Position numbers and translations under genes: made by a program
Shown here: piece by piece, positions 40,449-51,129 of the stretch
How the letters are laid out: the number at the start of each line of letters is the position of its first letter
Numbering within the stretch: position 1 is the first letter of the stretch
Origin: Thermodesulfobacteriota bacterium
GTDB taxonomy: Bacteria; Desulfobacterota_D; UBA1144; Nemesobacterales; JAJCZQ01
Direction: 5' to 3'
Assembly (NCBI GenBank): GCA_965215275.1
Contig: OZ244044.1
Span: 960,001-1,024,000 of the forward strand
DNA: 64,000 nucleotides
Notes under the pieces: generated by a model
Seen by the model: the letters and a program-made list of their open reading frames with translations, nothing else
The model's database searches: none
Told to the model about the DNA's origin: nothing

Positions 40449-41126
40449 ATGAATAAAAAGATCATCTTGTTCTTAATACTTGCCGTGACAGTAACGGCTG
40501 CGTCCTGTGGTACAAAAAATATCCGCAGTGCGTCCGCCAAGCAGCTCTACGCAGACGCCACGAACGAGCTTTACAACAAAAAAAGCGGGTTTCCCTGGAT
40601 ATTTACCGGTCCAAATTACGATATAATACTGGAAACCCTGAAAGAAATAAGGCTCAGGTACACGTTCAGTCCCTTTGCCACCCTGGCAGAGATCAGAACC
40701 GCTGATACTTATTTCAGGCAGGGAAAATACAGTCAGGCCATCATAGAATACGGGCAGTTTTTAAGAGATCATCCGGGACACAATGAATACTCGCACGCTT
40801 TATACCAGCTGGCAATGTCAAACTATGAACTGAGGAACCCGAAGGACAGGGAACCAACGTTCACCCGAAATGCAATTGCGAGATTTGGAGAATTCATAAA
40901 AAGATACCCTGGGTCTGAACTGGTATCCGAGGCAGAAGAGAATATCATCGAATGCAAAGAGATACTTGCCGCAAGAGAAATACATATAGGAAAGTTTTAT
41001 CTTAAGAAAAAGAACTATAAGGCCTCGTTAGAAAGATTTAAACTTGTTCTGAAACAGTATCCAGATACAGAATACTACGATGAGGCCATGCGGCTTATAG
41101 CAAAAATACCGAAGGAAACAGAATGA
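40449..41126 (+). CDS. bamD: Outer membrane protein assembly factor BamD (lipoprotein)
   Basis: Lipobox AASC, TPR-like helices, DREPT.T..A, LAARE..IGKFY. Confidence 0.85.
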   Translation: MNKKIILFLILAVTVTAASCGTKNIRSASAKQLYADATNELYNKKSGFPWIFTGPNYDIILETLKEIRLRYTFSPFATLAEIRTADTYFRQGKYSQAIIEYGQFLRDHPGHNEYSHALYQLAMSNYELRNPKDREPTFTRNAIARFGEFIKRYPGSELVSEAEENIIECKEILAAREIHIGKFYLKKKNYKASLERFKLVLKQYPDTEYYDEAMRLIAKIPKETE

Positions 41127-41237
41127 AATTCAATAATACAGAAACCGCTCCGTCTTGTAATTTTTTTAAAATATATAAATACAATAAAAATAATTATATA
41201 TTTTAAAAACTCCTGAACTATGTTAGAGATTTTTATT

Positions 41238-41345
41238 TTAAACTCTAATATATTTACCTAATACAAAACTATGAATAACTCCATTATTACCTTTTCTAAC
41301 ATATTAAATCATATTATCTACAACATCTTTGAAGGAAATTGTAAA
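41238..41345 (-). pseudogene. 3' remnant of the HicB-like paralog family found at 46.4-47.8 kb
   Basis: Reads FKDVVDNMI*YVRKGNNGVIHSFVLGKYIRV*, matching FKEVIDDLIQDTKKYNNGIIHSFVLGREVRV; followed by a partial copy of the conserved element at 41208-41233. Confidence 0.7.
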
Positions 41346-41481
41346 TGAATGGTATAAATTTTTTAGGATATGTATTAGGTATATTTATTACCAGTAATTA
41401 TTCTTGTTGCAGGTGCAATAGGGTCGGCAATTTTTGATTTATTAGGTTTTTAAATAATAAAAAACAAGGAGGAATAGTCAG

Positions 41482-42025
41482 TTGAATAAGAATACTACTT
41501 CTACCCCCCCCCATCAAATACGCTATTTTATGGCGATTGTTTAGATGTAATGCAACAATGGTCAGAGGGTTTTGTTGACCTGTGCTATCTTGATCCACCT
41601 TTTAACTCTAAAACAAACTACAATATCTTATTTGGAAAACAAAGTAACAATAAAGCTCAAGCCATTGCTTTTAAAGATACATGGTTTTGGGATGATAAAG
41701 CACTTGAACGAGTAAGTAAGATAAAAAAAGCCGTAGGTCATGGTGCTCATCAGTCTATAACTGGATTACATTTTATACTTGGAGATTGTGGAATGATTTC
41801 TTATCTCTCTTATATGGCTGAAAGACTTATTGAAATTAGAAGAATATTAAAATCTACTGGTAGCATATATCTTCATTGCGACCCAACAGCTTCTCATTAC
41901 CTCAAGGTTATTTTAGATGATGTTTTTGGACAGAAAAATTTCAGAAACGAGATTATTTGGTGTTACACAACCCCTGCAAATGTAAAAAGATATTTTCCGA
42001 GGAAAACAGACACTATATTATTTTA
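41482..42025 (+). pseudogene. 5' half of an N6-adenine MTase / Mrr-like nuclease fusion, interrupted by the IS and out of frame at a C9 tract
   Basis: AGGAGG SD + TTG at 41482; NTLFYGDCL, YLDPPFNS, GSIYLHCD, FRNEIIW; TAG stop created by TSD + TIR. Confidence 0.88.
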
Positions 42026-42069
42026 GGGAATAATATACTTTGTTCGCCAAGAAAGTAAACAGAAAATAC

Positions 42070-42097
42070 TTGACTGTTTTGAAATAAATGATACAAT
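42070..42097 (+). promoter_or_regulatory. Transposase promoter
   Basis: TTGACT-16 nt-TACAAT with an extended -10 TG; AAGGAG SD before ATG 42122. Confidence 0.65.
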
Positions 42098-42121
42098 ATT
42101 CGCCATAAAGGAGAATAAATC

Positions 42122-43075
42122 ATGAGTAAGAACAGTAAGAAATCATCAACAGGTAAAATAAGTATAGTTCAGTTTTTTAAGAAGTTTCCAGATGAGGATT
42201 CAGCAAGAATATGGTTTGAAGAGCAGAAATGGGGTAAAGACAGTAAAGACCGATACTGTCCTCACTGCGGGAGTTTTAACACTGCATCTGTTAAGCATAG
42301 AATGCCGTATAGGTGTAGGGATTGCCGTAAACATTTCAGTATAAGAAGTAAAAGTATATTGTCTGACAGCAATGTTTCTTTTCAAAACTGGCTATTAGCT
42401 ATATACTTGATAACTACCAATCTTAAAGGAGTATCCAGCCATAAACTGGGAAGGGATTTAGAGGTAACACAAAAGACAGCTTGGTTTTTAGGTCACAGGA
42501 TAAGAGAGGCATTTAACGATCAGTCAGATGCAAAGATGTTAGAACCAATAGAGATGGATGAGACCTATGTCGGTGGTTTAGAGAGGAACAAGCATGCCAG
42601 TAAGAAGGTAGAGGGAACACAGGGTAGAAGCACTAAAACTAAATCTGCGGTAGTAGGTATTAAGTCCAGAGTGGATAAGAAGGTTAAAGCAAAGGTAACT
42701 GAAACCGTTAAAAGTGATGAACTACATAAAATGATCAAGGAAACAGTTACAGACGGGTCAACAGTTTATACAGACGAGAACAGAGGGTATAGTGGACTGA
42801 ATAAGAAGGGGTATAAACACAAGACAGTTAATCACGGAGTAGGTGAATATATCAAGGAACAAGCACATACCAATGGGATAGAAAGTTTCTGGTCAATGCT
42901 TAAAAGAGGTTTTATCGGAGTGTATCATAAGATGTCCAGGAAACACCTGCAACGCTACATTAATGAGTATGTAGGTAGACATAATATTAGACCATTACCA
43001 ACTATGGATCAGATGAAAATTATATTTAAGGGATTAGAAGGAAAGAGATTGAAGTATAAAGAATTGATTAGTTAA
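42122..43075 (+). CDS. IS1595 family transposase (zinc ribbon + HTH + ISXO2-like DDE/N domain)
   Basis: CPHCGS...CRDC, QKTAW..GHRIR, DETYVGG, VYTDE, VNH, HTNGIESFWS.LKR, HLQRYINEY..RHN. Confidence 0.95.
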   Translation: MSKNSKKSSTGKISIVQFFKKFPDEDSARIWFEEQKWGKDSKDRYCPHCGSFNTASVKHRMPYRCRDCRKHFSIRSKSILSDSNVSFQNWLLAIYLITTNLKGVSSHKLGRDLEVTQKTAWFLGHRIREAFNDQSDAKMLEPIEMDETYVGGLERNKHASKKVEGTQGRSTKTKSAVVGIKSRVDKKVKAKVTETVKSDELHKMIKETVTDGSTVYTDENRGYSGLNKKGYKHKTVNHGVGEYIKEQAHTNGIESFWSMLKRGFIGVYHKMSRKHLQRYINEYVGRHNIRPLPTMDQMKIIFKGLEGKRLKYKELIS

Positions 43076-43077
43076 AT

Positions 43078-43108
43078 GGTTGACTAAGCATTCACGGTTT
43101 GATATAAG
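43078..43108 (+). promoter_or_regulatory. Post-transposase cargo promoter
   Basis: TTGACT-17 nt-TATAAG with an extended TG, 2 nt after the tnp stop; 28/31 identical copy at 58999-59029. Confidence 0.75.
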
Positions 43109-43135
43109 GTTGTTTAAGTATTAAGGAGAAAAGAA

Positions 43136-43924
43136 ATTATAAACTTAAACCCAACCGATTTTAAAAACTATAGGAAGGATTTAGGATTTACTAACCAAGA
43201 GAAAGCAAAAAGGTTTTTAGCTGCAAAAGATTTAGTTGCTGATATTGATTTTAAGTATCTTGAAAAGTTAAATGACAGAATATTTGAAATAGTTGGTAGG
43301 TTAAATTCTATTATTGCTGAAAATATACGGCATAAAGATATTTACAAGTTTAAAGAATATAATATAGATAAACCTTATAAAATATTAAGGGATAATAGAA
43401 AAATCCAAGTTATGAATAATCTTGGCAGAAGACCCGAGCAAACAACTTTTTCTTGGTTAAGGGGATATGTTATTTTACAATTTTTTCTTCCAGCAATTGA
43501 ATATATTTTTGAAGGAAAAGATATTAAAAACATAGGAGATGATGATTTATATAATATAAAGAAATTTAAAAAAACTCCTACTGCGGATTTAGAGGTAAAT
43601 GACGGTAGAAATAAAATACGATTAGAAATTCAATCAGGTTTTCAAGGGATTAATGATATTAAGCAACATAAAGTGTTGGAAGCACAAAGAAAGTTTAGAG
43701 ATGAAGGGATACCTACTATTGCTATTCATTTTGATATTTTTAATGGACAAACTGCTTTTGTAAGAATAGATAAAATTGCTGATGATGATTTAGGATGGAT
43801 TACAAGACAACAGATGGAAGGTCAAACTGTTTTTGAAATAGACCAAAACAATTTTTTATGGTATCTGCCACATAAAGTACCAACTATATCTGATCTAAAA
43901 CCAGTATTAGATGATGCAATATAA
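43136..43924 (+). CDS. Putative type II restriction endonuclease (PD-(D/E)XK-like), cargo of the IS; probable non-canonical ATT start
   Basis: Frame is open 92 codons upstream of ATG 43412 (YRKDLGFTNQ..AK.F.AAKD); TADLE...LEIQSG...DIKQHK; overlaps the cognate C5 MTase. Confidence 0.72.
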   Translation: MINLNPTDFKNYRKDLGFTNQEKAKRFLAAKDLVADIDFKYLEKLNDRIFEIVGRLNSIIAENIRHKDIYKFKEYNIDKPYKILRDNRKIQVMNNLGRRPEQTTFSWLRGYVILQFFLPAIEYIFEGKDIKNIGDDDLYNIKKFKKTPTADLEVNDGRNKIRLEIQSGFQGINDIKQHKVLEAQRKFRDEGIPTIAIHFDIFNGQTAFVRIDKIADDDLGWITRQQMEGQTVFEIDQNNFLWYLPHKVPTISDLKPVLDDAI

Positions 43925-44990
43925 TATAATAGATTTATTTGCAGGGGTTGGTGGGTTAAGTTATCCGTTTCATAGAAATGACAATTTTAAAGTCATTGCC
44001 GCAAATGAGATACTCAAAGAACCAGCGAAGGCTTACTTGATGAACAATCCTGAAACTCGGATGTATAACATGGATATATCTGAATTTTCAGTAAAGCAAG
44101 TTTTTAAAGATACAGGGGAGAACAGAGTTGATATTGTTTTAGGTGGGCCTCCGTGTCAATCATATTCCACAGCAGGTAAGCGAGATTTGAAAGATCCCCG
44201 TACAGAACTATTTAAAGAGTACTATCGGATTTTACAAGAGTGCCAACCTAAATTGTTTATTTTTGAAAATGTTAGTGGTATGTTGTCAATTAAAAAAGGT
44301 TCACTTTTTATTAAAATGTTATATATGTTTGAAAATATAGGATATACAGTCCAATATAAAATACTTAATGCCGTTGATTATGGAGTACCACAGGTAAGAA
44401 AACGAGTTATAGTAATTGGAACAAAAGACAATATACATTTTGAATTTCCTGAAACAACACACGGTGATGGAAAGATTCCTTTCTTAACAGTTTCAGATGC
44501 TATAAGTGATTTGCCGTTTATTAAAACAGGTGAAATAAGTAATAAATATGCTATGCATCCTCAGAATGAATATCAGAAACATATGAGAAAAGAAAGTAAT
44601 GGTTTATTATCAGATCATTCAGCTCCAAAAAACAATGAAAGATTGTTAAAGATAATGGAATTGTTGCCAGATGGAGGTACACCAAATGATCTACCTGAAA
44701 AACTTAGACCCACTTCAGGTTTTGATAATACATATAGTCGTCTCTGGTGGAATAGACCAAGTACTACTATAACAAGGAATTTAGGTACTCCGTCCTCAGC
44801 ACGATGTGTACATCCAAGAACTCCAAGACCATTAACAACACGGGAAGGAGCAAGATTACAATCATTTCCAGATAGTTTTAAATTTTATGGTTCACGAGGA
44901 AAAAAGAATTTACAAATCGGTGAAGCAGTTCCACCGATACTTTCAAAAGCATTATTAAACAATGTTTGTTATTCACTAAATATAAATTGA
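43911..44990 (+). CDS. DNA (cytosine-5)-methyltransferase, cargo of the IS
   Basis: DLFAGVGG, GGPPCQ, FENV, YGVPQ.RKR, REGARLQSFPD; TRD resembles the H. pylori ACGT-specific M.Hpy99XI as recalled. Confidence 0.95.
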   Translation: MMQYNIIDLFAGVGGLSYPFHRNDNFKVIAANEILKEPAKAYLMNNPETRMYNMDISEFSVKQVFKDTGENRVDIVLGGPPCQSYSTAGKRDLKDPRTELFKEYYRILQECQPKLFIFENVSGMLSIKKGSLFIKMLYMFENIGYTVQYKILNAVDYGVPQVRKRVIVIGTKDNIHFEFPETTHGDGKIPFLTVSDAISDLPFIKTGEISNKYAMHPQNEYQKHMRKESNGLLSDHSAPKNNERLLKIMELLPDGGTPNDLPEKLRPTSGFDNTYSRLWWNRPSTTITRNLGTPSSARCVHPRTPRPLTTREGARLQSFPDSFKFYGSRGKKNLQIGEAVPPILSKALLNNVCYSLNIN

Positions 44991-45001
44991 TATAAACAAA
45001 A

Positions 45002-45157
45002 ATGACAGAGAAAAAGAGAAGTTATACAAGTAGATTTATACCGCATATACCAGCAACTATGGAAGAAGTAGCTGAAGCTATATTCAAACCTAACGCTGAA
45101 TTTGCTAAAAAACAAAGAGAAATTCGTAAAAATAAAAGCAAGAAAAAAACTAAATAA
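45002..45157 (+). CDS. Small basic 51-aa ORF at the right end of the IS
   Basis: MTEKKRSYTSRFIPHIPATMEEVAEAIFKPNAEFAKKQREIRKNKSKKKTK*, stop 5 nt before the right TIR. Confidence 0.5.
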   Translation: MTEKKRSYTSRFIPHIPATMEEVAEAIFKPNAEFAKKQREIRKNKSKKKTK

Positions 45158-45195
45158 TAACTTTGGCGAACAAAGTATATTATTCCCTTATTTTA

Positions 45196-46093
45196 TGTAA
45201 AATCAGAAAAAAGTAACTATACCTTCAACCATAATGATGTTAGAGTGCCTTATAAAAGAGGTAGCAAGTTAGATGGTAAAGGATGGGATACGGGTGTGAC
45301 ATATAGTAAAGAAGAAATAAATAAAGGGAAATTGGTAACAAATTGGTGGTCAGATATAACTCCAGTTCAAAGATTAATAAAAGAGATGATGGGTTATCCT
45401 ACACAAAAACCCGTTGCCTTGCTTAAACGCATAATAAAGGCATCCTCTAATAAGGGAGATATAGTATTAGATCCGTTTTGTGGGTGTGGTACTACAATAG
45501 ATGCAGCAAATGAGTTAAATAGGAACTGGCTAGGAATAGATATATCACCTTACGCTGTAGATTTAATATGTAAGCGTAGATTTGAACATCAGAAAATAGA
45601 TGTAAACGGTATACCAACGAGCATTGCAGGTGCAGAAAAACTGGCAAAGGATAAGCCGTTTGATTTTGAAAAGTGGGCGATCACTCGTATTTCTGGAATG
45701 TTACCAAACAACAAACAACGTGGAGATGGTGGAGTGGATGGACGAGGAACTATTTATCATCCTATACAAGGATCAAAAGGATTAGTATTGGCACAAGTTA
45801 AAGGTGGTCATTTTAGTTTGAGTCAACTACGAGATTTTTTACATACGGTAGACAGAGAGAAAGCAACATTTGGTGTTTTTATTACATTGAAGAATGATGG
45901 AATATCTGACAATGCTAAAGTGGAAGTACAAAAAGCTGGGAAAATAAAAATTGGAGCAAATAGTTATAATAAAGTGCAGATATGGTCTATTGAAGATTAT
46001 TTTGATGATAAAAAAGCTGACCTACCTTCATTAGCCGATCCATTTACAGGCACCGCTATGAAACAATCTCTTTTTAAGCAACATATTTTATAA
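45196..46093 (+). pseudogene. 3' half of the interrupted MTase / Mrr-like nuclease fusion
   Basis: In-frame continuation YVKSEK...; GYPTQKP, LDPFCGCGTT; C-terminal FEKWA...DGGVDG...QVKGG nuclease-like domain. Confidence 0.88.
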
Positions 46094-46238
46094 TGACAAC
46101 ACAAAAAGATAAAAACAGAAAAAATTGATTATGACCCTGTAAGTGAAGAATAATTTACAGAGTTCGCAAAGCAAGTGTTATTGATGAAAAGTTATCCCCA
46201 TACCTACCCATATTAAATTTTTAGAATTACCCATCATA

Positions 46239-46391
46239 TTAAATATTCTTTAAAACAATAATTATAAATAACCCTACTACAGTAACAACAGTTAAATATT
46301 TTAATAAGTTAACTCGTAATTTAAGTTTTTTAATCTCTTCTTCTAAAAACTTTAAATCACTATTTAAATCCTTTTTATCTTTATTCATCAT
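46239..46391 (-). CDS. Small coiled-coil + C-terminal TM protein (50 aa)
   Basis: MMNKDKKDLNSDLKFLEEEIKKLKLRVNLLKYLTVVTVVGLFIIIVLKNI*; starts at the end of the conserved element. Confidence 0.45.
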   Translation of the reverse strand: MMNKDKKDLNSDLKFLEEEIKKLKLRVNLLKYLTVVTVVGLFIIIVLKNI

Positions 46392-46426
46392 CTTACTATT
46401 AAAACTCCTGATAACTGTTATAGATT

Positions 46427-46786
46427 TTAAACTCTAACCTCCCTACCTAATACGAAACTATGGATAATTCCATTATTATATTTTTTAGTATCTTGAATAA
46501 GATCATCTATAACCTCTTTAAATTTTTTCAACATAGCATCAAAACTTTCATAAAAAGTCTCATTCTCATCATAATAGTCATCAACATTTAATGCAGGACA
46601 ACATACCTGATCGATACCAGGTTCATTAATACCTGTAAAATAATAGATATCATGACCTTTATGAGTTTCCAGATACTCAATATTTCTCATAAAGTCATTC
46701 CGATCTCCGAATATATTTTTCCTTTCAGACATATCATATCTGCTTTTAATAATCTTTTGTATTTTTGTCATTTTTCTATTCCTCAT
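46427..46786 (-). CDS. Hypothetical protein, HicB-like paralog
   Basis: Aligns over its length with the C-terminal half of 46845-47483 (RY.....F.DR.DFM.NI.Y, CP.LNV, SFVL). Confidence 0.55.
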   Translation of the reverse strand: MRNRKMTKIQKIIKSRYDMSERKNIFGDRNDFMRNIEYLETHKGHDIYYFTGINEPGIDQVCCPALNVDDYYDENETFYESFDAMLKKFKEVIDDLIQDTKKYNNGIIHSFVLGREVRV

Positions 46787-46844
46787 GGATTAATTTCTCA
46801 TCTCACGATCAGAACTCCCGAGAAGTGTTATAAATTTGAGTTTA

Positions 46845-47483
46845 TTAAACATAAAAATGTTTATCTAATACAAGACTCCAAATTTTTCCATCACTTATTC
46901 TTCTAGAACTGTCAATAACAAGATCCATACCACTTTTAAGATTTTCTATTATCAAACCTTCATCATCATTAAACTCACCTATCTGATCTGAGCTATGAAC
47001 ATTTAATTCAGGACAGGCAGCTTGAAGGTAATCTTTTCCTTTATCATTAAAGATAAACATAGTAAATCCTCTATATTCACCTACATATTTTATATTTTCC
47101 ATAAAATCTAATCTATCTTTAAATACCTTATTACCATCATATCTTTCATTCATTTTTTCTATTTTTGACATTCTTCTATATCTCCTTATTTCATCCAATT
47201 TATATTTCACATTCTTAGATTTATCCATTTCTTTTATATCTTTAATAGCTTTTTTTAAATCTTGTTTATGATAATTATCACAATCTCTATTTGCATGATA
47301 AGCAATTTCAACAAATATATCAGGATATCTATAATAACAATATCTAATATGAGAATCTTTACCTGTTTCTTCTATATTAAAACCTAACTTTTTAACTTTA
47401 CGAATAAAGTTACGAATCTTCATAACACCTTTACCGGTCAATTGAGCAATTAACCTCTCATAAATATAATTTCTATCATCCAT
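46845..47483 (-). CDS. HicA-like toxin domain fused in frame to a HicB-like domain
   Basis: KKLGF....GKDSH....IAYH (HicA dsRBD-like); Y.GF...F.D...QAACPEL...IENLK..MDL.ID (HicB-like); internal AAGGAG + ATG at 47171. Confidence 0.6.
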   Translation of the reverse strand: MDDRNYIYERLIAQLTGKGVMKIRNFIRKVKKLGFNIEETGKDSHIRYCYYRYPDIFVEIAYHANRDCDNYHKQDLKKAIKDIKEMDKSKNVKYKLDEIRRYRRMSKIEKMNERYDGNKVFKDRLDFMENIKYVGEYRGFTMFIFNDKGKDYLQAACPELNVHSSDQIGEFNDDEGLIIENLKSGMDLVIDSSRRISDGKIWSLVLDKHFYV

Positions 47484-47560
47484 AGTTATACTCCTTATTT
47501 ATTTGTCATTTCACTATTAGAACTCCCGAGAACTGTTATAGATTTGATTATTTTTAATTA

Positions 47561-47768
47561 TTAAACTCTAATTTCTTTACCTGATACAAAACTCCAAACT
47601 TTTCCATCACTTATTCTTATAGAACTGTCGATAACAAGACCCATACCACTTGTAAGATTTTCTATTAGCAAATATTCATCATCATTGAATTCACCGATTT
47701 GATGTAACCTGCGAGTATTTAATTCAGAACAGGCAGCTTGAAAATAATCTTTTCCTTTATTATTAAAA
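47561..47768 (-). pseudogene. Truncated duplicate of the HicB-like domain
   Basis: FNNKGKDYFQAACSELN...QIGEFNDDE.L.IENL.SGM.LVIDSS.RISDGK, nearly identical to about 46870-47050. Confidence 0.75.
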
Positions 47769-47919
47769 ACAGAGAAAGAAGTCCACACTTGACATTCGTT
47801 CATAATACTTGGTAAAATAAAAGAGTTATGAAAAATCCAAACATAAAAACATGTAGTTCCATTACCCCCCCCCGTGTATACCTGACCTTTCAGCCTGGTA
47901 TAAGTGTTTTTTAAGAACA

Positions 47920-50900
47920 ATGTTTAAGATAATCCCCCCCCCATCTAAGTTAATCCTTTCTTTATTCTTATTTTTTCTGTGCATCATTACTATAGCTGCA
48001 AAAGGGCAGAGCAGCTTAGAAGAAACATTATCTGAATGCAGAGATATCAGTGCAGACACGGAAGATCCGTTATACGGATGTCAGTGGCATCTGAAGAACA
48101 CGGGGCAGCTTATTTATTCAGGAAAGAGAATAACATCAGGAGAAGATATAAACGTAGAGGGAGTGTGGAACGAAGACGTATACGGTACCGGAATTAACAT
48201 AGCAATAGTAAGTGACGGTATCGACCTTTCACATGAGGACCTTTCTGCTAAGGTCCGTTCCGGACCGAACTATGATCTTTCTGAAAGAAATAATTCTGAA
48301 GAGAACAGTTCAGAAAAAGATAATTCAGAAAGAGATGATCTTTCATACGGTTCATCCTTTAGTGGAACACGAGCGGCAGGTGTAATAGCAGCAACTGGAT
48401 ATAACGGACTGGGAGTAAGAGGAACAGCACCTGGTGCGAGTATATACAGTTACGGGTTAACTGGTGATCTCAGGGAAGCGGACGCGGTGGTCCGTAATAA
48501 GGAAATAACGGCAGTATCGGTTAACGGCCGGGGATCTGAGGACGGAGCTTTTTTTCAGGAGGCTTTATCTTCCTGGGAAGAAGGAGTGGAACTTGGTATA
48601 AGTAAAGGGTTTTATGGTAAAGGAGTGTTTTACGTCCGGGGAGCAGGGGACGGTCATGAGAATAACGATCAGGCTAATTTTTCTGAACATTCTAATTACT
48701 ACGGCGTAACTGCCGTTTGTTCAACTGACGGTTATGGAAAGAAGAGTATATTTTCAGAAGAGGGAGTAAATCTATGGGTATGTGCACCTGGTTCTGATAT
48801 TGTAACTACAGATAACAACAACGATTACGTTGTAACTTCCGGAACATTTCTATCAGCTTCACAGGTTGCAGGAGTGGCAGCACTGCTGAGAGAGATAAAC
48901 GGGCAGCTGAGCTGGAGGGATATAAAGCTTATACTTGCGGGTTCAGCACGGCAGAACGATTTTTTTGACATGAGCTGGGAGACAGGAGCTGTTAAATACG
49001 GTTCTGATACGGAAAGATATAAATATAATCCTAAGTATGGTTTTGGCGTGGTAGACGCAGAAGCAGCGGCAGAGCTTGCCAGAAGCTGGAAAGGCGTTGG
49101 TGAAATGAGGACCGTTACAGCTTCTTCAGATAATGAACTGACAATTCCTGATGGAGAAGGAGAAGCAGACGGTGTCCTTGTCTCCAGACTTATTATCCCT
49201 GACCTGGAAGAAATATTTACGGAATTCGTAGAGGTTGAACTTGTTTTTTCTCATGACCGCTTACAGGACCTCAATATACAGATAACCTCTCCTTCCGGGA
49301 CAGTATCGGAACTTGTCCGGGAGTTTTCAGGGGAGGAAGAAGATGCTGATATCAGTTACCTGAGAAGAACACATCGTTTCGGGTCGGCTAAGCACCTCGG
49401 AGAATACCCTTCCGGAGAATGGGTCCTTCATATATATGATACTGCTTCCGGAGATGGAGAAGCAGAAAATTCAGAAAATACGGGGACCTTGCACTCATGG
49501 AGCATCAGGGTCTACGGGCATGTTTTTTTATCAGACCGTGGCAAGGAGATAACTACTAAAATAACAACCTTGCCACCTATTAGTGACAAGGTCTACGAAC
49601 AAGGTAGACTAGTAAGTGAAGTGATGCCTGAAGCAACGGGAGGAACTACACCTAGATTTGCCTTTACTCACCCTCTACCTGATGGATTGGAATTTGATCG
49701 TGATACCAGAGTGTTAAGTGGGGTACCAACTACTGTGGGTGTGACTAGTGTTAGATATCTTGCTCAAGGTGCAGATAATTTTCAATCCGTAAAGACCTTC
49801 ACTATAACTATAACAGCTTACACTGGACCAAGCTTCGGCAGTGAGAGTATAGAAGATAAAGTATATATAAACGGAGAAGCAGTAAATGAAACACTGCCTG
49901 AAGCAACATCAGGGAATGCTCCATTAACTTACAGCTTAACTAATACTGGGTTAACTACTTTGACTTTACATCGTGGATTGGATTATACAGACAGAGTTAT
50001 AAGTGGAACACTCAATATCAATATTCCAGAAATACTTCCTCACACTTGGAGTTATACATATAAAGTAACAGACAATGATGGAGATACGGATGAGTTAACG
50101 TTCAGTATCACGGTAAGGGATGCAACTGACGTACCTACCTTCAGTGGTGAGACGATAGATGATCAGGAGTATACAGCAGGGGTTCAGATAACACCGGTAA
50201 CGCTGCCTGAGGCAACATCAGGAGATGCTCCGTTAATATACCGTTTAACCCCTGCCTTGCCTGATGGATTGATCTATAACAATATCACCGGAGTTATAAG
50301 CGGAACACCGACTGCTGCAATGTCTGAGACTATGTATACATATACAGTAACGGATAATGATGGAGATACGGATGAGCTGACGTTTAATATTGAGGTAGCA
50401 GCAAGCTTCAGCAACGTAACGATAGAAGATAAGGTTTATATAGCAGGTACAGCAGTAACGGAAATGCTGCCAGAGGCAACTGGACATAATGGAACGGTAA
50501 CATACAGTTTAACCCCATCATTACCAACTGGACTGGACTTTAATACGGCTACCCGGGAGATAAGTGGAACACCTGCTGCTGCAACGTCTCAGACTGCTTA
50601 TACATATACCGTTACTACTGGTGCAGGAGGACCTGCACGAACTTTGACGTTCAGGATAACAGTAGAAGAAGACAGCATGCCGGACTTCAGCGGTGTGACA
50701 ATTCCTGATCGTGTTTACACGGGGAGAACAATAACGCTGCCGGAGGCAACGGGAGGGAATCCACCAGTTACTTACAGTATAACACCTGATCTGCCAGCTG
50801 GATTGAGTTTTAACGAAGTAACGCGGGTTATAAGTGGTACACCCAGGAGAGCATCGACAGGTACTTACACGTATAGTGTAACGGACGGAAATGGAGATAC

Positions 50901-51129
50901 GGATGAGGTGAGTTTCATGCTCAGTGTAGAGGTTCCTTCTACTCCAGGACCAACACCACCACAAGGACCAAGAACGTCAGGTAGTGATTCAGGCGGAGGT
51001 GGAGGAGGATGTGCTGTCTCAGATCAGAGCAGCGTTGTTTCTGATATTCTTGGAGTAATGGCATGTCTGATACTTATACCTGTGTCAGTAGTGATAAGAA
51101 GGAAGAGAAGATCTCAGATAAAGAATTAG
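47920..51129 (+). CDS. S8 kexin-like pseudo-peptidase with P-domain, about 5 Ig-like repeats and a C-terminal membrane anchor
   Basis: Signal peptide; DPLY..QWHL, LSWRD, YGFG.VDA; P-domain; LPEATGG...LP.GL...R.ISGTP repeats; GGGGC-TM-RRKRR tail; catalytic D/H/S substituted. Confidence 0.85.
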   Translation: MFKIIPPPSKLILSLFLFFLCIITIAAKGQSSLEETLSECRDISADTEDPLYGCQWHLKNTGQLIYSGKRITSGEDINVEGVWNEDVYGTGINIAIVSDGIDLSHEDLSAKVRSGPNYDLSERNNSEENSSEKDNSERDDLSYGSSFSGTRAAGVIAATGYNGLGVRGTAPGASIYSYGLTGDLREADAVVRNKEITAVSVNGRGSEDGAFFQEALSSWEEGVELGISKGFYGKGVFYVRGAGDGHENNDQANFSEHSNYYGVTAVCSTDGYGKKSIFSEEGVNLWVCAPGSDIVTTDNNNDYVVTSGTFLSASQVAGVAALLREINGQLSWRDIKLILAGSARQNDFFDMSWETGAVKYGSDTERYKYNPKYGFGVVDAEAAAELARSWKGVGEMRTVTASSDNELTIPDGEGEADGVLVSRLIIPDLEEIFTEFVEVELVFSHDRLQDLNIQITSPSGTVSELVREFSGEEEDADISYLRRTHRFGSAKHLGEYPSGEWVLHIYDTASGDGEAENSENTGTLHSWSIRVYGHVFLSDRGKEITTKITTLPPISDKVYEQGRLVSEVMPEATGGTTPRFAFTHPLPDGLEFDRDTRVLSGVPTTVGVTSVRYLAQGADNFQSVKTFTITITAYTGPSFGSESIEDKVYINGEAVNETLPEATSGNAPLTYSLTNTGLTTLTLHRGLDYTDRVISGTLNINIPEILPHTWSYTYKVTDNDGDTDELTFSITVRDATDVPTFSGETIDDQEYTAGVQITPVTLPEATSGDAPLIYRLTPALPDGLIYNNITGVISGTPTAAMSETMYTYTVTDNDGDTDELTFNIEVAASFSNVTIEDKVYIAGTAVTEMLPEATGHNGTVTYSLTPSLPTGLDFNTATREISGTPAAATSQTAYTYTVTTGAGGPARTLTFRITVEEDSMPDFSGVTIPDRVYTGRTITLPEATGGNPPVTYSITPDLPAGLSFNEVTRVISGTPRRASTGTYTYSVTDGNGDTDEVSFMLSVEVPSTPGPTPPQGPRTSGSDSGGGGGGCAVSDQSSVVSDILGVMACLILIPVSVVIRRKRRSQIKN

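Follow-up and report, generated by a model that had tools for sequence, protein, structure and literature searches.

A short repeat trailing HicB-like antitoxin genes probably multiplied by tandem duplication downstream of fused hicA-hicB genes with a candidate internal start

Short repeats between small genes are familiar from Xer/pdif modules and from attC arrays, both of which carry toxin-antitoxin cargo. A dif or pdif site has a conserved 11-bp XerD arm 6-8 bp away from the XerC arm, and an attC site has RYYYAAC...GTTRRRY boxes and a stable hairpin. IS1595-family elements with passenger genes are a known concept as well.

The defining features of HicAB toxin-antitoxin systems are described in the accessible parts of PMC2701414 and PMC11594946, the latter of which presents HicA as a dsRBD-like domain with a catalytic histidine. 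A partial RNase H fold in HicB and a toxicity that direct binding neutralizes are further hallmarks. In the main text of Gerdes 2024 (PMC10865869), Class 11 is composed of a fused HicA-HicB ORF with a C-terminal HTH or RHH domain, and the regulation of fused HicABs is left open. In the Rpn systems, the C-terminal antitoxin is translated from a proven internal start and the toxin is a PD-(D/E)XK DNase, according to the accessible part of Zhong et al. (PMC10327210). In these systems the shorter product, made in the cell, blocks the longer. A commentary by Koonin raises the question of intragenic antitoxins outside Rpn (PMC10400984).

We analyzed a 64,000-nt stretch of contig OZ244044.1 (hereafter the window) from the genome of a Thermodesulfobacteriota bacterium. 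A 41-bp element recurs there among small genes on the minus strand, and the order predicted from the letters (HicB-like fragment, element, HicA-HicB, element, HicB-like gene, element, small ORF) is confirmed by the coordinates (Table 1). HicA-HicB is present in the array as predicted, but as one fused ORF. A fourth, partial element and a HicB-like remnant lie ~5 kb away, again as predicted, and the methyltransferase gene is positioned between this remnant and the main copies, placing its locus inside the array. In two other genomes, G001 and G002, bamD adjoins a dksA-like gene, indicating that the intervening 10 kb is an insertion here. Element copy 3 provides the 50-aa ORF with a Shine-Dalgarno sequence (SD; -6.9 kcal/mol) and an ATG. 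The tail of the truncated copy of subfamily B1 becomes B2 type about 30 nt ahead of the stop.

Table 1. Features of the array and its surroundings (positions in the window unless a locus is named).
Feature	Position	Strand	Remarks
bamD/yfiO	40449-41126	+	left core-gene boundary
Decayed element copy	41199-41233	-	24/41 matches; after the HicB-like remnant
HicB-like (B2) 3' remnant	41238-41363	-	internal stop
N6/N4 methyltransferase with C-terminal Mrr-like domain	41482-46093	+	inside the array; split by IS1595
IS1595-family element	42026-45187	+	26-bp ends; 8-bp target duplication
50-aa ORF	46239-46391	-	hydrophobic C-terminus; single-copy in genome; no family above cut-off
Element copy 3	46388-46428	-	35/41 matches; overlaps HicB-like stop
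Solo HicB-like gene, subfamily B2	46427-46786	-	start likely 46771; fusion-seam remnant upstream
Element copy 2	46798-46838	-	36/41 matches; 6 nt past fused-gene stop
Fused HicA-HicB ORF, 212 aa	46845-47483	-	HicA-like aa about 20-90 (His45); HicB-like aa 105-212
Predicted internal start in fused ORF	47169-47187	-	Shine-Dalgarno AGGAG and in-frame ATG (Met105)
Element copy 1	47506-47546	-	begins 14 nt past stop of truncated HicB-like piece
5'-truncated HicB-like piece, subfamily B1	47561-47770	-	belongs to 716-bp duplication; cut off by S8 leader repeat
Leader/promoter repeat of S8 protease paralogs	47771-47919	+	unrelated to the element
Second array	L001:7900-9250 (G000:C1:545,9xx-547,250)		77-aa ORF, fused HicA-HicB (220 aa), element, 5'-truncated HicB-like copy, element, short ORF

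The array is interrupted and bounded by other mobile or repeated sequences. Besides its transposase, the IS1595-family element contains a C5 methyltransferase and ORFs of 170 and 51 aa; the 170-aa ORF has no family match and is possibly the endonuclease of the C5 methyltransferase. The statement that the window lacks a recombinase is thus correct for site-specific recombinases, but neglects this DDE transposase. Several complete IS1595 elements in the genome bear methyltransferases, nucleases, or HicAB-family passengers (C1:1304051-1307389, 1812584-1815955), and short non-autonomous forms of 420-445 bp are present, too. At 41482-41550, the N6 methyltransferase gene shows a TTG under an SD, but a C9 run behind this TTG shifts it out of frame with the coding region. 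C9 also occurs in a partial copy (C1:1,490,3xx), and phase variation of the gene is possible. On the other side, the S8 leader repeat truncates the first HicB-like copy; 38 copies of this repeat are found, and for 36 of them an S8 locus is no more than 1.5 kb away. The S8-protease family has 56 loci genome-wide, including a copy with Ig-like repeats in the window (47771-51129). Poly-C runs of 8-13 are located near the 5' end in 36 of the 56 loci, and among the 19 loci with a placeable start, 4 (window copy included) are in frame and 15 out of frame. The S8 loci may make up a large repertoire of phase-variable surface proteases, with errors in assembling the homopolymers as the alternative. The genome also contains tandem arrays with a 63-bp period at C1:1927067-1927759 and C1:1988465-1989997, one 97-99% identical with 19% GC and the other about 76% identical with 35% GC.

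Three matches to the core pattern of the element lie in the window, against none in any of 100 shuffles. Across the genome, a single 1.99-Mb contig that is 99.9% complete, there are exactly five copies at a threshold of at least 27/41 matches (range 33-41/41), three in the window and two elsewhere (C1:545,932 and C1:546,290). In a position weight matrix scan the five copies score 53-62; the next site scores 14, within the control range of 7-20. The two copies outside the window belong to a second array (Table 1), in which the repeat unit is 358 bp with 88% identity and the 77-aa ORF has no family match.

At all six copies, the decayed one included, the element starts close to the stop codon of a HicB-like gene (offsets -2, -2, -2, +4, +6, and +14, all from one lineage), and homology upstream of the element runs ~40 nt into the HicB-like coding tail. 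The element follows no other kind of gene in the 1.99 Mb, indicating that it trails HicB-like genes and does not head diverse cassettes. The repeated element of the original prediction is therefore real, but the wording that it precedes each gene hides the constant HicB-like family upstream. The genome-wide motif search with flanking genes that had been proposed places the motif only beside one paralog family (6/6 copies). This HicB-like family has 15-17 matches in the genome, dispersed in low-GC islets, and the element is missing at eight more distant members. Outside its own genome the pattern is found in none of the genomes scanned (1/41). The family loci of G001 and G002 lack the element (best 20-23/41 matches), and viral contigs give no match. 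Matches in metagenomes (four stretches, three distinct) have no similarity in their flanks and no family gene and are attributed to chance; records close to the own genome possibly fell outside the viral and metagenome scans. Two HicB-like genes of G001 (L037 and L041) each have another common ~45-bp tail containing ATAATTCC, which resembles an IS1595 end. These tails are a further instance of a tail that moves with its gene.

The element had been described as better conserved than the genes. Within a subfamily, element and coding identities are alike (35/40 versus 88/102, 31/40 versus 75/102, 34/40 versus 74/102, and 32/40 versus 83/102; p 0.13-1 in all four pairs). Between B1 and B2, the element (30-37/40) is more conserved than the coding sequence (60-67/102), with p<0.05 in five of six pairs, which are non-independent. 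The description accordingly holds across the two subfamilies only. Divergence of the element at the coding rate, as simple duplication would give, is seen in 4/4 within-subfamily pairs and fails across subfamilies. The higher conservation across subfamilies is the main result against plain duplication. The origin of the array as a relic of tandem duplication, one of the options originally raised, is supported, with the motif restricted to a paralog family.

A mosaic in the coding tail can account for the excess. MaxChi places breakpoints 30, 30, and 15 nt upstream of the stop (p 0.0002-0.001), the truncated B1 copy being B1-like up to 15-30 nt from the stop and B2-like thereafter. The breakpoint lies in conserved C-terminal codons, so that one crossover can move tail and element together across subfamilies. 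A crossover inside the coding tail can thus explain the cross-subfamily conservation of the element, if the mosaic is read correctly; the breakpoint signal could instead reflect divergence of the fused gene's own tail. On the downstream side, the homology breaks off 0-9 nt beyond the element, at a point that varies among copies, and such ragged 3' junctions look unlike a fixed crossover. In phylogenetic trees the element-bearing genes lie on one side of a branch with support of 96/94 without an outgroup and of 79/79 and 83/79 with one; the support for this branch is not strong once the outgroup is added.

Gene order across strains had been suggested as a check, and another tandem arrangement exists in run X7. 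In run X1, which is possibly the source sample, contigs agree with 45149-46643 and 46723-47814 without a difference, and the fused frame is intact. Run X7 comes from a separate study and is about 97% identical to the window; three of its contigs are informative. One contig connects the element with a further B2 3' end (joint 46834 to 46426), and the shared part has 2x depth. Another connects a B2 3' end with sequence resembling the end of bamD (a 30-letter loose end, compared by eye). Two contigs have IS1595-like ends with an 8-nt overlap between the fused-gene stop and the element. These joints indicate that the number of units differs between strains, and the X7 contigs make a separate insertion of the methyltransferase locus likely. 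X7 contigs do not cover 46060-46407 or much of the methyltransferase/IS interior, a gap that is not informative by itself. The back-joint could be a circle, but the doubled depth and the two distinct flanking contigs favor a tandem copy. Among the joints listed for the contigs of seven runs, none deletes a unit between two elements, which is not evidence of absence. Two further cases are known from proteins: a 40-kb contig of another assembly encodes two nearly identical B2 proteins (P0005/P0028), and the fusion P0030 has near-identical solo forms, P0011 and P0029, in other assemblies. Scans for loci that started from the proteins gave no match.

The N-terminal part of the fused protein is HicA-like. 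PF07927 matches four of the five genomic fusions (E 2.7e-7 to 0.007; one above the cut-off), and His45 is invariant in the domain. The assignment of the C-terminal domain as HicB-like is indirect. It is suggested by a match of the family profile to the N-domain of a canonical HicB in G002 (E 8.4e-5; hhalign 91%, E 9.7e-7) and by a model (pLDDT 65) that shows a weak alignment with several solved HicB N-domains (Z 3.9-4.7, level with unrelated chains). Pfam has no match for this domain and Foldseek none at E<=0.001. PDB sequence searches give nothing at E<0.29, and PADLOC and NCBIfam no meaningful match. A single-sequence protein search returns the query alone, an Atlas search gives no usable match for the domain and just a 0.76 HicA lead for P0012, and single-sequence structure prediction is unusable (pLDDT 43). 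There is no match to PF05534, and the proteins end about 12 residues past the HicB helix, with no C-terminal DNA-binding domain seen.

The family is narrow. It has 27 representatives among 1.84 billion sequences, is found in 3 of 101 genomes in the order, and appears restricted to a narrow uncultured lineage. A single clade of fused members is rejected (7 changes; p-AU 0.001). Their spread over the tree fits either an ancient fusion from which solo antitoxins split off again and again or fusion on several occasions. Eight fusions, with HicA parts only 8-45% identical, retain an open frame and the aligned histidine, and a split hicA/hicB pair is located at C1:356 kb. Two members, a fusion (C1:1812 kb) and a solo gene (C1:1304 kb), lie inside complete IS1595 elements with 8-bp target duplications, suggesting that carriage by IS1595 is one route of spread. 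Six of 15 family loci are within 300 nt of an IS1595 end, compared with 27% of random low-GC windows; we therefore claim no enrichment.

At the seam between the two domains, four of the five genomic fusions have an in-frame ATG with an SD of -8.2 (the window fusion), -12.2, -10.8, and -11.8 kcal/mol, computed against the 16S tail of the same genome. Among 959 internal ATGs of low-GC ORFs, 26 reach -8.2 and 4 reach -10.8. The seam SD is retained beneath differing encoded residues. Solo copies begin at the position of the seam ATG, and the solo gene at 483 kb has upstream bases in common with the seam of the 889-kb fusion. At the protein level, three external fusions (P0030, P0004, and P0014) have Met at the seam; it is missing in the 506-kb fusion and in P0033. 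In two fusions, further internal ATGs have an SD of -6 or stronger. On these sequence features, the fused gene is predicted to make a free antitoxin from the internal start, in the manner of Rpn.

Several other identities of the element have to be weighed. A site-specific recombination site, of Xer type or new, that shuffles small-gene cassettes was among the options originally raised, and we consider it very improbable. The spacing of the direct repeat, the difference in unit number between strains, an 11-mer loosely resembling a XerC arm, and the presence of genes for XerC and XerD all speak for it. The genome's own dif, however, is located at C1:188661-188688, 1.3 kb from the GC-skew maximum, and the best match of the element to it is 14-15/28, with 3-7/11 in the XerD arm, which leaves no XerD arm. 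The two attC boxes occur together in none of five copies, and the predicted folds are not more stable than those of shuffled copies (z -0.45 to +2.2 in 6/6); the AACTC/GAGTT inverted ends are present in one copy, at 5 bp. Scanning for catalytic domains finds two tyrosine recombinases, with best matches to XerC and XerD, and no resolvase or integron integrase in the nearly complete genome. With one family upstream in 6/6 copies, an integron cassette array is rejected, and the crossover mapping to the coding tail and the varying 3' junctions also disagree with a recombination site. Taken together, this reading is already largely refuted. The element is no terminal repeat of IS1595 either, scoring -6 to -13.5 against at least 17.4 for the 188 IS1595-type ends in the genome; the six element-bearing copies sit 663-4560 nt from any such end. 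A search of Rfam gives no match and the terminator scan is negative. Substitutions are not enriched at third positions (alignment judged by eye), which argues against a hidden peptide. Less improbable, but still unlikely, is a functional cis-site under selection, serving a yet unrecognised factor as operator or promoter, by which each unit carries the control for the next gene. An AGTTCT-N4-AGTTCT direct repeat with a ten-bp period leaves an operator role possible, and the element, more conserved than coding DNA across subfamilies, lies 23 nt ahead of the ATG of the fused gene and has an SD-like purine run in its right half. As a promoter it lacks consensus support, for 0 of 15 sigma-70 sites overlap a copy (12.0 expected by chance). 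Moreover, no copy precedes the 546-kb fusion or any gene outside the arrays, X7 does without all but about 8 nt of the last copy, and the family has no RHH domain of the kind found in the canonical G002 HicB.

A different doubt concerns the genes. The element may have arisen by duplication while the fused ORFs are decaying after the loss of a stop codon, with a seam SD inherited from a formerly independent hicB and an array that is debris without function. In favor of this are the truncation or breakage of several copies, the split pair at C1:356 kb, the narrowness of the family, and HicA Pfam scores mostly under the cut-off. We nevertheless hold this to be rather doubtful, as the open frames and aligned histidines of the eight divergent fusions, the SD maintained under different residues, and the dispersal of fused forms across the tree are against it.

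The element is probably a 3' spacer that belongs to a single lineage of HicB-like antitoxin genes. It likely spread as antitoxin-plus-spacer units, which were duplicated in tandem and recombined by homology downstream of a fused hicA-hicB gene, and no recombinase would have acted on the element itself. Units of antitoxin and spacer would have been copied by slippage or homologous recombination, and a B1-type gene would have acquired the spacer via a crossover within the conserved C-terminal codons. The right half of the spacer may serve as the ribosome-binding site for whatever gene comes next. The SD and ATG that the parent fusion has at its HicA/HicB seam likely keep the duplicated units expressible. 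The methyltransferase, the IS1595 element, and the S8 gene are probably later, independent insertions. The full-length fused toxin is predicted to be restrained by the separately translated antitoxin, with extra antitoxin-only copies in addition. More tentatively, the locus may represent a lineage-specific gene-within-gene HicAB family, in which a fused HicA-HicB toxin is paired with an internally started free HicB antitoxin without a DNA-binding domain. Control would then be exerted by the translation ratio and not by autorepression, antitoxin-only copies would be stockpiled in strain-variable tandem arrays, and the arrays would expand and exchange tails through recombination at the conserved 3' spacer; we regard this as possible, if somewhat short of probable.

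Compared with known systems, the element itself is ordinary and not a new cassette system. The array differs from Xer/pdif and attC arrays in having no XerD arm, attC boxes, hairpin, integrase, or fixed crossover, and in holding one gene family. The scheme of IS1595 with passengers fits two other family members, which lie inside IS1595 ends; the six element-bearing copies do not fit. The nearest conventional relative of the family is the canonical class 4 hicA-hicB(RHH) operon of G002 (C17, L035), located beside an apparent tRNA gene. It resembles the fusions in the profile match to its HicB N-domain and in the order hicA then hicB, but consists of two separate genes, has an RHH domain, and lacks the element.

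Fused HicABs and the intragenic antitoxins of Rpn are already known. The present fusions share with Class 11 a single ORF with N-terminal HicA followed by HicB, but end without the C-terminal HTH or RHH. None of the 14 classes in the main text of Gerdes 2024 (11-13 are fused) is a HicA-HicB fusion without a DNA-binding domain, and the word "internal" does not occur in that main text (PMC10865869); its supplement may bear on novelty, as Table S1 may contain such proteins. No report combining HicAB with an internal start was found in the literature searched, in which coverage of subscription journals is limited. The likeness to Rpn extends to an internal-start antitoxin, tandem-duplicated copies, and an extra solo antitoxin at some loci (accessible part of PMC10327210; PMC10400984). 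The difference is that Rpn has a DNase toxin and a proven start, whereas the present family pairs a HicA-like toxin with a HicB-like antitoxin and has a start that is only predicted. The family does not belong to Rpn, its N-domain being HicA-like and not PD-(D/E)XK, although it may work like Rpn. Its confinement to a narrow uncultured lineage limits its reach. The fused genes are more notable than the element: four divergent fusions in one genome, with a strong SD and ATG at the seam, make a candidate for an intragenic antitoxin. A gene-within-gene HicAB, if true, would bring an RNase toxin under the principle known from Rpn and would explain what restrains some of the fused HicABs.
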